DNA of 64,000 nucleotides from Escherichia coli (GCF_003018255.1 NZ_CP027440.1); one strand, 5' to 3'. Shown: positions 5,042 through 52,182, counted from the stretch's first letter. Notes: generated by a model not told the origin, from the sequence alone. Numbers and translations are program-made.

Positions 5042-5065
5042 ATCCGGCCTGAATTCAGGCCGGAT
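5042..5065. terminator. perfect hairpin between convergent xdhC and ygeV (likely bidirectional terminator)
   Basis: ATCCGGCCTGAATTCAGGCCGGAT is a perfect palindrome between the two convergent stops. Confidence 0.55.
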
Positions 5066-16947: not shown

Positions 16948-19900
16948 ATGGGGGATATTATGCGTCCCATTCCGTTTGAGGAACTTTTGACGCGCATATT
17001 TGATGAATACCAACAACAACGCTCAATCTTTGGTATTCCCGAGCAACAGTTTTACTCACCCGTAAAAGGTAAAACTGTTAGCGTCTTCGGTGAAACCTGT
17101 GCCACTCCCGTCGGCCCTGCCGCTGGCCCGCACACGCAGCTCGCGCAAAATATTGTCACTTCCTGGCTGACTGGCGGACGCTTCATCGAACTAAAAACCG
17201 TCCAAATTCTTGACCGCCTGGAGCTGGAAAAGCCCTGTATCGATGCCGAAGACGAGTGCTTTAACACCGAATGGTCTACCGAATTTACCCTGCTTAAAGC
17301 CTGGGATGAATACCTCAAAGCCTGGTTTGCCCTGCACCTTCTCGAAGCGATGTTCCAGCCTTCTGATTCCTGTAAATCGTTCATCTTTAATATGAGCGTC
17401 GGTTACAACCTCGAAGGTATTAAGCAACCGCCGATGCAGCAGTTCATCGACAATATGATGGACGCATCTGACCATCCGAAATTCGCTCAATACCGCGATG
17501 CACTTAATAAGCTACTCCAGGATGACGCATTTTTAGCCCGCCACGGCTTACAGGAAAAACGCGAAAGCTTGCAAGCCTTACCCGCTCGCATCCCCACCAG
17601 CATGGTACAAGGGGTTACCCTCTCCACCATGCACGGCTGTCCTCCGCATGAAATCGAAGCCATTTGCCGCTACATGCTGGAAGAAAAAGGGCTCAACACC
17701 TTTGTGAAACTCAACCCGACCTTACTGGGGTACGCGCGTGTTCGTGAGATCCTCGATGTCTGCGGTTTCGGTTACATCGGCTTAAAAGAAGAGTCATTTG
17801 ATCACGACCTCAAGCTGACGCAAGCACTGGAAATGCTGGAACGCCTGATGGCACTGGCAAAAGAAAAATCACTCGGCTTTGGCGTAAAACTGACTAACAC
17901 TCTCGGCACCATTAATAACAAAGGCGCACTGCCCGGTGAAGAGATGTATATGTCAGGCCGTGCGCTGTTCCCGCTCTCCATCAACGTTGCAGCAGTTCTC
18001 TCTCGCGCCTTTGACGGCAAACTGCCCATTTCTTATTCCGGTGGTGCCAGTCAGCTGACTATCCGCGATATTTTTGATACTGGTATTCGCCCTATTACTA
18101 TGGCAACCGACCTGCTGAAACCTGGCGGCTATCTGCGCTTAAGTGCCTGCATGCGCGAGCTGGAAGGCTCAGATGCCTGGGAGCTTAACCACGTTGACGT
18201 CGAACGACTGAACAGACTGGCAGCAGACGCGTTAACCATGGAATACACCCAGAAACACTGGAAGCCAGAAGAGCGTATTGAAGTGGCTGAAGACCTGCCG
18301 CTGACCGATTGCTACGTTGCCCCCTGTGTTACTGCCTGCGCTATCAAGCAAGATATTCCGGAATACATCCGTCTGCTTGGCGAACACCGCTATGCCGACG
18401 CGCTGGAACTCATCTATCAACGCAACGCCCTGCCCGCCATTACCGGTCATATTTGCGATCACCAGTGCCAATACAACTGTACCCGCCTGGATTACGACAG
18501 TGCGCTGAATATCCGCGAACTGAAAAAAGTCGCGCTGGAAAAAGGTTGGGATGAATATAAGCAACGCTGGCACAAACCAGCCGGTTCTGGTTCACGCCAT
18601 CCGGTTGCCGTGATTGGTGCAGGTCCGGCGGGTCTGGCAGCAGGTTACTTCCTTGCCAGAGCGGGCCATCCGGTTACGCTGTTTGAACGCGAAGCCAATG
18701 CGGGCGGCGTGGTGAAAAATATCATTCCTCAGTTCCGTATTCCTGCAGAGTTAATTCAGCACGATATCGATTTTGTTGCCGCTCACGGCGTAAAATTTGA
18801 GTATGGCTGCTCACCGGATCTGACCGTTGAACAGTTAAAAAATCAGGGCTTCCACTATGTTCTGATTGCCACCGGCACTGATAAAAATAGCGGTGTGAAA
18901 CTGGCGGGCGACAACCAAAATGTCTGGAAATCACTCCCCTTCCTGCGTGAATACAACAAGGGCACAGCGCTCAAGCTGGGCAAACATGTGGTCGTTGTCG
19001 GGGCGGGTAACACGGCAATGGACTGCGCTCGTGCGGCGTTACGCGTTCCAGGCGTAGAAAAAGCAACGGTCGTTTACCGTCGTTCACTGCAAGAGATGCC
19101 AGCATGGCGCGAAGAGTATGAAGAAGCGTTGCACGACGGCGTGGAGTTCCGTTTCCTGAATAATCCGGAACGTTTCGATGCTGATGGCACCTTAACCTTG
19201 CGCGTTATGTCGCTTGGCGAACCTGATGAGAAAGGTCGTCGCCGTCCGGTTGAAACCAACGAAACAGTAACACTGCATGTAGACAGCCTGATCACCGCCA
19301 TTGGTGAACAGCAGGATACTGAAGCCCTGAATGCGATGGGCGTGCCGCTGGACAAAAACGGCTGGCCAGACGTCGACCATAATGGCGAAACGCGTCTGAG
19401 TGACGTCTTTATGATCGGCGACGTACAGCGCGGACCATCCTCCATTGTCGCTGCTGTCGGAACCGCGCGTCGGGCGACCGATGCCATCCTGAGTCGGGAA
19501 AATATCCGTTCCCACCAGAACGATAAATACTGGAATAACGTCAATCCGGCGGAAATCTATCAACGTAAAGGCGATATCTCTGTCACTCTGGTGAACAGTG
19601 ACGATCGTGACGCGTTTGTCGCGCAGGAAGCCGCTCGCTGCCTTGAATGTAACTACGTTTGCAGCAAGTGTGTGGATGTCTGCCCGAACCGCGCCAACGT
19701 ATCCATTGCGGTCCCAGGCTTCCAGAACCGTTTCCAGACGCTGCATCTCGACGCCTACTGCAACGAATGCGGCAACTGCGCCCAATTCTGCCCGTGGAAC
19801 GGTAAACCGTACAAAGACAAAATCACCGTCTTCAGCCTGTCGCAAGACTTTGATAACAGCAGCAACCCAGGCTTCCTTGTGGAAGATTGCCGGGTACGCG

Positions 19901-21377: not shown

Positions 21378-21427
21378 ATAACAGCTCCCCTCTTCTTTCA
21401 GAGAAGAGGGGAAATTAAGGAAAGACG

Positions 21428-43186: not shown

Positions 43187-43243
43187 TATCGCATCAGGCA
43201 TTTATCGCCTGATGCGACACTGGTGTGTCTTTTCAGGCCTACA
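43187..43243. repeat. REP/BIME-type extragenic palindromic element
   Basis: GCCTGATGCGACactggtgtgtcTTTTCAGGCCTAC preceded by the inverted partial copy TCGCATCAGGC. Confidence 0.65.
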
Positions 43244-49437: not shown

Positions 49438-50532
49438 TCACGCGACGGCTTTGCCGTTACGCACAAAAACAGGTTTCGTCACTTTAACCGGCATTTCACG
49501 GTTGCGAATTTGCACAATCGCTGTTTCACCAATACCTTCCGGCACGCGCGCCAGCGCAATGCTGTAACCCAGCGTCGGGGAGAAAGTCCCGCTGGTGATA
49601 ATGCCTTCATGCTGGTTGCCCTGCGCATCAGTAAAACGTACCGGCAGTTCATTACGCAGCACGCCTTTTTCGGTCATCACCAGACCAACCAGTTTTTCTG
49701 TGCCATGCTCACGCTGCACTTCCAGGGCTTCACGACCGATGAAGTCACGATCTGCCGGTTCCCAGGCGATAGTCCAGCCCATATTGGCGGCTAAAGGAGA
49801 GATGGTTTCGTCCATCTCCTGACTATAAAGATTCATACCCGCTTCCAGACGCAGCGTGTCACGCGCGCCCAGGCCGCATGGCTTAACGCCCGCTTCCACC
49901 AGCGCGCGCCAGAAATCCGCCGCTTTTTCATTGGGCAGCGCAATTTCATAGCCCGCTTCACCGGTATAACCAGTGGTGGCAATAAACAGATCGCCCGCCT
50001 GCACGCCAAAGAACGGTTTCATCCCTTCCACCGCCTGACGCTGAGCGTCATTAAACAGTGTGGCAGCTTTTGCCTGCGCATTCGGCCCTTGCACGGCAAT
50101 CATGGAAAGGTCATCACGAACGGTAATTTCGATGCCGAAAGGTTCAGCGTGTTGGGTAATCCAGGAGAGGTCTTTTTCGCGGGTGGCGGAGTTTACAACG
50201 AGGCGGAAGAAATCTTCAGTAAAGTAGTAGACGATGAGGTCATCTATCACACCGCCAGAGGCATTCAACATCCCCGAGTAAAGGGCTTTGCCGCTTTTGG
50301 TGAGCTTCGCCACATCGTTCGCCAGCAGATAACGCAGAAACTCCCGGGTGCGGCTGCCGCGAAGATCGACGATGGTCATATGTGACACATCAAACATTCC
50401 GGCATCGGTACGTACCGCATGATGTTCGTCGATTTGCGAACCGTAATGCAGCGGCATCATCCAGCCGTGGAAATCTACCATGCGAGCGCCGCAAAGCGTG
50501 TGTTGTTCGTACAAAGGAGTCTGTTGTGCCAT
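49438..50532 (-). CDS. gcvT: aminomethyltransferase, glycine cleavage T protein
   Basis: 364 aa. Confidence 0.95.
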
Positions 50533-50870
50533 CTTGTCCTCATTGAATAAGCGGGGCTGACAACTTTTTCATGGTGAAATTATCACCACGAAACCCAGCA
50601 TCGGAGCCACTCCCGGTCCCCAACGCAATCGTTCTCTTTTGCCTGAACTTACCACCGAAACAGACTGTTAACCATAAGGTAAAATTGATCATCACATTAG
50701 CTTATGGTTAAAAAGCGCCAAAATCGCAACAGAATAAAAAACCAAAAAATGAACAAATCTCTATATAAAGATAAATAGATGAGAAAGTTAATTTGAATAA
50801 GACAACATTAAGAACTAAAAAAATGTCAAAAAACACTAAATAAAAAATTCGTAACATTAGAAAATATAAT
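50533..50870 (-). promoter_or_regulatory. gcvTHP promoter / upstream regulatory region (AT-rich)
   Basis: Strongly AT-rich tract with A-runs upstream of gcvT; known to carry GcvA, Lrp, PurR and CRP sites (individual sites not mapped here). Confidence 0.6.
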
Positions 50871-50902
50871 GCGAAATCGCAGGTGAAATTAGTTTATTTC
50901 AA

Positions 50903-50936
50903 ATGAGGAAAATCTCCCGGCGAAAAAACCGGGAGA
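50903..50936 (-). terminator. intrinsic terminator of the ubiH-ubiI transcript
   Basis: TCTCCCGG-cgaaaaaa-CCGGGAGA hairpin; minus strand follows with TTTTCCTCATTT. Confidence 0.6.
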
Positions 50937-50979
50937 TGAAAGTGTGATGGGTATCAAATAAACAGCAGAAGAGAAATTT

Positions 50980-52182
50980 TTAACGCAGCCATTCAGGCAA
51001 ATCGTTTAATCCCATTGCCTGGCGGATAAGTTGCGGCTTAACGCCTGGAAGCGTGTCGGCCAGTTTCAGACCAATATCACGCAGCAGTTTTTTCGCCGGA
51101 TTGGTACCGGAAAACAGATCGCGGAATCCCTGCATACCAGCCAGCATCAGCGCCGCACTGTGCTTACGGCTACGCTCATAGCGGCGTAGGTAAATGTACT
51201 GCCCGATGTCTTTCCCCTGACGATGCAACCGTTTCAGTTCAGCAATCAGCTCTGCAGCATCCATAAAGCCGAGATTTACCCCCTGCCCCGCGAGCGGGTG
51301 AATGGTATGCGCGGCGTCGCCCACCAGCGCCAGACGGTGCGCGGCAAACTGGCGCGCATAACGCCCCGTCAGTGGGAACACCTGACGTGCGCTCTCAACC
51401 TTGCATAAGCCCAGGCGATTATCAAAAGCGATATTTAACGCGCGATTAAATTCGTCTTCACTTGCCTGCTGCATCCGCTGCGCTTCCTCTGGCGACAGTG
51501 ACCAGACAATCGAGCAAAGATGCGGATCGCTAAGCGGTAAAAAGGCCAGAATGCCTTCGCCATGGAAAACCTGCCGCGCCACCGCATCATGCGGTTCTTC
51601 CGTGCGAATGGTCGCTACCAGCGCGTGATGCTGATAATCCCAGAAAGTCAGCGGAATATCGGCTTTGTTGCGCAACCAGGAATTAGCACCGTCCGCGCCA
51701 ATCACCAGACGCGCCGTTAACATGCTGCCATCTTTCAGCGTCAGGAAGGTTTCATTTTCTCCCCAGGCGACCTGCTGTAATTCTGCGGGGGCCAACAGAG
51801 TGATATCTGACGACTGCTGCGCTTTGTTCCACAGCGCGTAGTGAATCACTGAGTTTTCAACGATATGCCCAAGATGGCTATAGCCCATGCTTTGATCGTC
51901 AAACGAAATGTGACCAAAACTGTCTTTGTCCCACACTTCCATACCGTGATAACAACTGGCCCTACGAGAGAGAATGTCCTGCCAGACGCCAAGACGGGTG
52001 AGTAATTTTTCGCTGGCGGCATTGATAGCCGAAACGCGCAGTTGTGGTGGTGCATCCGCCGCCAGAGGTTCCGGTACGCGCTGCTCCAGTACGGCAACGC
52101 GTAAGCCGCTACCCTGCAAGCCGCAGGCAACCGCCAGCCCCACCATGCCGCCGCCAACAATGGCTACATCAACACTTTGCAT
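50980..52182 (-). CDS. ubiI: FAD-dependent monooxygenase (2-octaprenylphenol hydroxylase)
   Basis: 400 aa; VAIVGGGMVGLA FAD-binding fingerprint. Confidence 0.9.
   Translation of the reverse strand: MQSVDVAIVGGGMVGLAVACGLQGSGLRVAVLEQRVPEPLAADAPPQLRVSAINAASEKLLTRLGVWQDILSRRASCYHGMEVWDKDSFGHISFDDQSMGYSHLGHIVENSVIHYALWNKAQQSSDITLLAPAELQQVAWGENETFLTLKDGSMLTARLVIGADGANSWLRNKADIPLTFWDYQHHALVATIRTEEPHDAVARQVFHGEGILAFLPLSDPHLCSIVWSLSPEEAQRMQQASEDEFNRALNIAFDNRLGLCKVESARQVFPLTGRYARQFAAHRLALVGDAAHTIHPLAGQGVNLGFMDAAELIAELKRLHRQGKDIGQYIYLRRYERSRKHSAALMLAGMQGFRDLFSGTNPAKKLLRDIGLKLADTLPGVKPQLIRQAMGLNDLPEWLR

Follow-up and report, generated by a model that had tools for sequence, protein, structure and literature searches.

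An inverted repeat spanning 44 bp upstream of gcvT in Escherichia coli is, with a probability that we put at roughly 85%, the promoter-proximal GcvA operator (site 3) of the gcvTHP operon fused to the -35 element of its promoter, gcvTp. It occupies positions 50668-50711 of the window, by which we mean the whole 64,000-nucleotide stretch of E. coli DNA that was analysed, and reads TTAACCATAAG GTAAAATTGATCATCACATTAG CTTATGGTTAA on the + strand (arm, 22-bp spacer, arm). A preliminary description of this DNA had claimed a perfect 11-bp repeat with an N22 spacer, and a script check confirmed that the 11-mers at 50668-50678 and 50701-50711 are exact reverse complements; with one mismatch allowed, a repeat finder extended the arms to 15 nt, with 14 nt between them. 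The gene that follows, gcvT (49438-50532, - strand, ATG at 50532), encodes 364 amino acids and is the first gene of gcvTHP, judged from a list of ORFs and from RefSeq annotation in E. coli genomes that match the window; the same sources place gcvH and gcvP after gcvT and the end of ubiI at 50980. The repeat thus starts 136 bp and ends 179 bp upstream of the ATG of the minus-strand gcvT gene, in agreement with the distance of about 135-180 bp given previously, within a gcvT-ubiI intergenic region of 447 bp and 35% G+C.

Repeats of this kind, counted as perfect arms of at least 11 bp with a spacer of at most 40 bp, are rare by chance: one was present in 29 of 5000 shuffles of the 447-bp intergenic region, and the whole window contains 5, compared with 0.64 expected from dinucleotide shuffles. 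The arm sequence has no second occurrence anywhere in the 64-kb window, and the element had a single location in each of 5404 E. coli genomes. The several copies per genome that mark REP elements, MITEs or IS terminal repeats were not seen, the arms being single in the window. Four further perfect inverted repeats, with arms of 11-12 bp, lie at window positions 5042-5065, 17045-17079, 21386-21412 and 43189-43217; among them are a spacerless 24-bp palindrome, ATCCGGCCTGAATTCAGGCCGGAT, and a hairpin, TCGCATCAGGC...GCCTGATGCGA.

The position of the repeat relative to the promoter could be fixed from published data. The mapped transcription start of gcvT precedes the ATG by 108 nt (PMC2760140 Table S1; Mendoza-Vargas et al. 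2009) and is an A at 50640 (- strand), 3 nt from the gcvTp position on record; there is no gcvT entry in the start-site supplement of Kim et al. 2012. The same Table S1 of PMC2760140 lists gcvTp as a known sigma-70 promoter with the -10 sequence 'cggtGGTAAGTTcagg' and a TG extension, corresponding to an extended -10 element TGgTAAGTT at 50646-50654 (- strand; GGTAAGTT on the sense strand), which is conserved among the 80 loci listed in our comparison. Counted from 50640, the repeat runs from -28 to -71. Its near arm (50668-50678; TTAACCATAAG on the + strand and CTTATGGTTAA on the gcvT sense strand) lies at -38 to -28, its unoriented 22-bp spacer at 50679-50700 and its far arm (50701-50711; TTAACCATAAG on the gcvT sense strand) at -71 to -61, so that the sense strand reads TTAACCATAAG-CTAATGTGATGATCAATTTTAC-CTTATGGTTAA, followed by CAGTCTGTTTCGGTGGTAAGTTCAGGCAAAAGAGAACGATTGCGT. 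The probable -35 hexamer, TGGTTA (50669-50674, - strand; -34 to -29), was placed at the standard 17-bp spacing from the mapped -10 element and falls inside the near arm. A generic sigma-70 promoter and terminator scan of 50500-51000 found nothing, and we attribute the blank promoter result to gcvTp being weak and activator-dependent. At +5 to +18 of gcvTp stands an unoriented PurR-box-like sequence, ACGCAATCGTTCTC (50623-50636), which we take to be a putative PurR site from the PUR-box consensus and the PurR repression of gcv. Most other genera among the loci listed have ACGCAAACGTTCTC or ACGCAAACGTTACC there, and nearly all of them are nearer to the palindromic consensus (ACGCAAACGTT...) than is E. 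coli.

Within this frame the repeat carries the signature of GcvA. The published consensus is 'T-N11-A containing 5'-CTAAT-3'' (PMC3658693), and on the gcvT sense strand the far arm leads straight into a LysR-type box of this form, T-AAG-CTAAT-GTG-A (50692-50704, - strand), that is T50704-AAGCTAATGTG-A50692, with CTAAT at 50696-50700. The box, the core of GcvA site 3, is centred at about -58 and adjoins the -35 element. Its T, its A and its TAAT are invariant in our 72-sequence alignment of the matches listed, with the C of CTAAT at 97% among the 68 distinct sequences listed. The far arm is the outer half of the T-N11-A/CTAAT box, the right half of which lies in the spacer, and the near arm comprises the -35 hexamer and the promoter-proximal edge of the GcvA site. 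According to PMC5002191, CTAAT is the sole clearly conserved GcvA motif, and mutagenesis has shown that it is important for binding.

CTAAT is under-represented in the window (38 matches, 88 expected), and three copies occur on the gcvT sense strand of the 447-bp region, at 50696, 50856 and 50888 (about -58, -218 and -250), all of which fit T-N3-CTAAT-N3-A. The second, T-TTT-CTAAT-GTT-A (CTAAT at 50856-50860, - strand; about -216 to -220), is probably GcvA site 2, and the third, T-AAA-CTAAT-TTC-A (50888-50892, - strand; about -248 to -252), is probably GcvA site 1. The published GcvA footprints are reportedly -34 to -69 for site 3, -214 to -241 for site 2 and -242 to -271 for site 1; the three CTAAT boxes presumably fall inside these intervals, and the site 3 interval inside the repeat. 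Footprints of 35 bp and 57 bp upstream of gcvTHP are given in PMC5002191, and the positions of the second and third boxes fit the 57-bp one.

A 30-mer, CATAAGGTAAAATTGATCATCACATTAGCT (50673-50702, - strand), is listed as a match to a GcvA matrix with a score of 17.96, against 19.44 for the gcvB site (PMC2760140 Table S4), and is identical to the string in the window. This match is weak evidence, as we assume the matrix to have been trained on known GcvA sites, this one included. Apart from CTAAT, GcvA sites are described as poorly conserved (PMC5002191), and sequence-based predictors, the PMC2760140 matrix aside, gave zero cross-validation scores for GcvA (PMC2987836), so that motif evidence is weak by itself. 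A literature search with the literal site sequence returned unrelated papers only.

The window is identical to MG1655 over the repeat and over all of the sequence from the repeat to the gcvT ATG. Wilson, Urbanowski and Stauffer reportedly described GcvA site 3 of gcvTHP in E. coli in 1995 (J Bacteriol 177:4940). The repeat shares with that site its locus and sequence in MG1655, its CTAAT within a T-N11-A box and its abutment on the -35 element, and the interval that we take to be protected, -34 to -69, lies within the 44 bp. PMC5002191 gives a protected stretch of 35 bp. Compared with this footprint, the repeat is a few base pairs longer at each end, and the outer 6 bp of its near arm are the -35 hexamer. 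The element is, then, already known as GcvA site 3 plus a -35 element; in the literature checked, we did not find described its 11-bp symmetry or the restriction of that symmetry to Escherichia, as against a cleaner inner dyad in other enterics.

For a comparison of gcvT loci from at least 80 Enterobacterales, one genome per species, we aligned the 260 bp that precede each gcvT start; the set of 72 consists of the window plus 71 loci of Enterobacteriaceae and contains 68 distinct sequences, from which column frequencies were taken. Among the matches listed, the 44 bp aligned without any indel in the window and the 71 Enterobacteriaceae loci, which fits a fixed activator-polymerase geometry. 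The conserved blocks in the 72 promoters listed were CATAAGCTAATG..ATG and CTTATGGTT; CATAA (50706-50702), TAAT (50699-50696), AT (50692-50691) and TGGT (50674-50671) were invariant, the G and C linking CATAA to TAAT and the near-arm CTTA were near-invariant, and the spacer columns 50679-50689 varied between genera. Across the 68 distinct Enterobacteriaceae sequences listed, near-arm CTTATGGTT was 94-100% conserved and far-arm CATAAG 99-100%, with CATAA invariant, and the outer AAC of the far arm (50709-50707) was GGT in most genera among the loci listed. The 17-bp spacing between the -35 and -10 elements was kept in 79 of the 80 loci listed, and the -10 region and the PurR-box-like sequence were also conserved.

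Conservation of the GcvA site extended over the window and the 71 Enterobacteriaceae loci but not to nine others listed (Erwiniaceae, Yersiniaceae and others), in which the CTAAT box did not align and CTTATGGTTAA, the -10 element and the PurR-like box were retained. As the near arm is kept where no CTAAT box aligns, its constraint may come mainly from the core promoter and not from GcvA. Erwinia, Pantoea, Winslowiella, Rahnella, Serratia and Edaphovirga (L072-L076 and L078-L081) show this arrangement, and the loci of Erwiniaceae share TTCG(A/C)CC(C/T)CGTTT just upstream instead of the CTAAT box. GcvA control of gcvT may be organised differently in these six genera.

The symmetry of the arms followed a different pattern from their sequence. 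Counted as strict Watson-Crick pairs over the 68 distinct sequences listed, complementarity was 94-100% over the six-pair core (CATAAG/CTTATG), but only 7%, 15% and 21% where 50707-50709 face 50670-50672, and it was 31% and 88% at the two outermost pairs, values that match the prediction from column compositions. Among the matches listed, a perfect 11/11 was limited to the window and the one further locus from Escherichia, with 7-8/11 in most genera; with the three perfecting positions complementary in only 7-21% of sequences, perfection is confined to Escherichia. The symmetry conserved across genera is instead an inner dyad distinct from the 11-bp repeat, GGTCAT-N11-ATGACC, which surrounds the same CTAAT in most Enterobacteriaceae (6/6 in 28 of the loci listed and 5/6 in 13). 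In the window, this 23-bp dyad (50687-50709, - strand) reads AACCAT-N11-ATGATC, with 4/6 arm positions complementary. Neither the outer repeat nor the inner dyad showed covariation beyond shuffle controls in the 72-sequence alignment, and the symmetry of the inner dyad thus rests on conserved columns. Compensatory evolution is not claimed here, covariation being within controls; the Citrobacter pair AGCCAT...ATGGCT is only an anecdote. The extra 11-bp symmetry is a feature of the Escherichia lineage without a demonstrated role of its own.

The palindromic TGATCA reported in the spacer is indeed there (50686-50691), although it is not concentric with the repeat, its centre lying 1 bp from the repeat centre, and is confined to Escherichia. 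It includes a Dam site, GATC at 50687-50690, in the middle of GcvA site 3, which was Escherichia-specific among the loci listed. We rejected a Pap-like Dam/Lrp methylation switch at this GATC, as the motif is absent outside Escherichia in the loci listed and is lost in the divergent E. coli isolate DCE7.

Within E. coli the site varies little. The stretch 50660-50714 was identical in 5215 of 5426 complete genomes; E. coli Nissle 1917 has one SNP, in the spacer, and DCE7 has one far-arm SNP (TTATCCATAAG) in addition to its loss of the spacer GATC. The gcvT promoter region was on a replicon labelled as a plasmid in 1 of 5425 matching E. coli records and had no match in 1 of 5426 E. coli genomes. 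The AT-rich sequence immediately upstream of the repeat, 50717-50870, is unusually variable and is either fast-evolving or recombinant: across 5425 complete E. coli genomes, 50400-51100 was matched at no more than 97.9%, and gcvP in the window is 100% identical to that of two strains. We take this variable stretch to be the Lrp-binding region. A 27-aa ORF of MG1655, yqfI (50823-50906, + strand), which is divergent from gcvT and overlies GcvA sites 1 and 2, has a premature stop at codon 7 in the window (MSKNTK*, compared with MSKNTKSKNNGIRKYNAKTEVKLVYFK in MG1655). Just past the ubiI stop, 50912-50937 (- strand) contains a perfect 9-bp GC-rich stem, ATCTCCCGG/CCGGGAGAT, followed by TTTT, which, judged from its sequence, is likely to be the intrinsic terminator of ubiI and was missed by the simple terminator scan.

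Three other accounts of the repeat were weighed against the GcvA operator. The perfect symmetry of the Escherichia site may have been produced by remodelling, in which the inner dyad decayed and the outer symmetry arose, either by selection for equivalent outer half-sites (tetramer geometry, looping) or in a single template switch (quasi-palindrome correction); the selected form could alter GcvA tetramer seating, binding orientation, or looping to sites 1 and 2. All three changes from GGT to AAC at 50709-50707 do raise complementarity to the invariant near arm, as the inner dyad drops to 4/6, and about 0.05 perfect cases would be expected among the 68 sequences by a rough column-frequency product that ignores phylogeny. 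The near-uniformity of 50660-50714 among E. coli genomes and the position of the Nissle 1917 SNP outside the arms point the same way. However, A at 50709, A at 50708 and C at 50707 arise separately in Citrobacter, Salmonella, Klebsiella and Enterobacter lineages, and such independent recurrence of single changes looks like stepwise drift by transitions. In addition, one arm is mismatched in DCE7, the invariance within E. coli continues from the repeat all the way to the ATG and so is not arm-specific, and Escherichia is represented in the comparison by the E. coli window and one other Escherichia locus only. We therefore regard remodelling of the Escherichia operator, by either route, as unlikely. 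It is more improbable still that the arms are half-sites of some other dimeric or tetrameric regulator, binding TTAACCATAAG and its inverted copy in competition with GcvA or RNA polymerase. Such a regulator would suit the rarity of a perfect 11-bp repeat and a near arm conserved beyond the range of the CTAAT box, but 33 bp between the arm centres is more than a simple dimer would span, the outer positions of the arms do not pair outside Escherichia in the loci listed, and the GcvA box, the -35 and the -10 account for every conserved block. Nor is there regulon-like recurrence, the arm sequence being unique in the 64-kb window, or a match to the Lrp consensus in the repeat. The idea of a dimeric-regulator site is thus right in that the repeat belongs to the site of a regulator, GcvA, and wrong in so far as it makes the arms, whose centres lie 33 bp apart, the two half-sites of a single dimer.

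The least probable account, to which we attach hardly any weight, has a DNA cruciform or an RNA hairpin formed by the repeat controlling the promoter. Single-strand DNA folding does give the 11-bp stem (z-score -2.8 relative to shuffles), and with G-T wobble allowed 92% of the cells pair across genera. The stem is AT-rich, however, at -7.3 kcal/mol, and its 22-nt loop is partly closed by weak internal pairs, whereas a structure of this kind calls for a stable stem and a short loop, and cruciforms extrude more readily when the loop is only a few nucleotides long. Shuffles equalled the wobble pairing in 491 of 500 cases, because the far arm differs from the near-arm complement only by transitions, and there was no excess of compensatory changes (3 cells changed on both sides, compared with 5.6 in shuffles). 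For an RNA structure, RNAalifold predicted 0 pairs in the 72-sequence alignment, an Rfam search gave just two chance-level hits, none near threshold, and no terminator-like T-run was found after the repeat, which lies upstream of the mapped start and hence outside the gcvT mRNA. Untranscribed, and with neither an Rfam family nor a conserved fold nor a T-run, the repeat does not resemble a structured RNA or an intrinsic terminator. With no covariation, no RNA family and a weak hairpin, the cruciform-prone element proposed for this site is unsupported.

The region had also been described as bound by GcvA and Lrp. For GcvA this is borne out by the CTAAT, the T-N11-A box and the matrix match, but the Lrp consensus YAGHAWATTWTDCTR, with up to 3 mismatches, found no match within 50668-50711; the scan as a whole ran at chance level (80 matches, 72 expected) and is uninformative. 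The sole intergenic match, TGGTTTTTTATTCTG (50730-50744, - strand, 3 mismatches; about -90 to -104), shows partial conservation in Citrobacter and Salmonella (GGTTTTTTATTCTG) and may be the limit of the Lrp region on the side of the promoter. Stauffer and Stauffer reportedly observed an Lrp footprint from -92 to -229 in 1994. With the start at 50640 we take this to be about 50732-50869, upstream of the repeat and not reaching it.

For the operator reading, we suggest the following mechanism. The far arm and the adjoining CTAAT would serve as the LysR-type T-N11-A recognition box centred at about -58, and the near arm would supply both TGGTTA, as the -35 hexamer, and CTTAT, as the margin of the GcvA site on the promoter side. 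GcvA, a LysR-type regulator, bound beside or over the -35 element, would contact RNA polymerase and activate transcription when glycine is present, and the same site would join a repression loop with GcvR, GcvA sites 1 and 2 and Lrp-bent DNA. In the published model, a GcvA-GcvR complex on the promoter region and Lrp-induced bending form a repression loop without glycine, and glycine binds GcvR, freeing GcvA so that gcvTHP transcription is activated (PMC13104608); activation in this model agrees with a site that abuts the -35 element. By analogy with gcvB, CATAAG-CTAAT-GTGATG (-66 to -50) may be the high-affinity recognition site and the block ending in CTTATG (-38 to -33) the promoter-proximal activation site. 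In a LysR-type oligomer with two-fold symmetry the outermost contacts would be opposed, so that CATAAG might be expected to recur inverted, as CTTATG, about 28 bp away; on this basis the two may be outer half-sites for GcvA subunits.

Generic LysR operators (Schell 1993 and later reviews) have a recognition-binding site, or RBS, with a T-N11-A dyad near -65, and an activation-binding site, or ABS, next to or over the -35. The gcvT site resembles them in its T-N11-A dyad at about -58, in a second conserved block that touches the -35 and in fixed spacing across the 72 listed species. It differs in that the arms of its dyad lie outward of the T and A (GGTCAT...ATGACC) and not inward of them, and in that the promoter-proximal block has one recognisable half-site. 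GcvA, unlike generic LysR regulators, senses its signal through its partner GcvR and does not itself bind glycine (PMC13104608). The GcvA sites between gcvA and gcvB are two 15-bp repeats, ATTAG-n5-CTAAT, at -65 and -43 of gcvB (PMC5002191). The gcvT site has in common with these the CTAAT signature, a two-site layout and a proximal site adjoining the -35 of the activated promoter, but it contains a single CTAAT with no ATTAG partner at n5 spacing, and the register of CTAAT within T-N11-A is different. Placing the gcvB operator and gcvT site 3 in the same promoter register was tried and rejected, the shared TAACC being 7 bp off and the CTAAT in the opposite orientation. Like the cruciform-forming repeats of the ColE1 type, the gcvT repeat has perfect arms, here of 11 bp; those repeats, however, combine long arms with a loop of a few nucleotides, and the gcvT repeat has a 22-bp spacer, a weak AT-rich stem and pairing that is not conserved.

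Beyond annotation the significance is small, as this is a rediscovery, from sequence only, of an element in one of the best-studied E. coli promoters. A by-product is a phylogenetic footprint over at least 80 Enterobacterales, in which the constrained bases of site 3 are CATAA, TAAT, AT and TGGT. In its symmetry the site of E. coli is unusual, most genera among those listed having a clean 23-bp LysR-type dyad that is absent in E. coli, and this matters when E. coli data are used to define the GcvA motif, so far resistant to modelling. If remodelling of the operator were true, the E. coli model promoter would be unrepresentative of how GcvA engages gcvT in other enterics.
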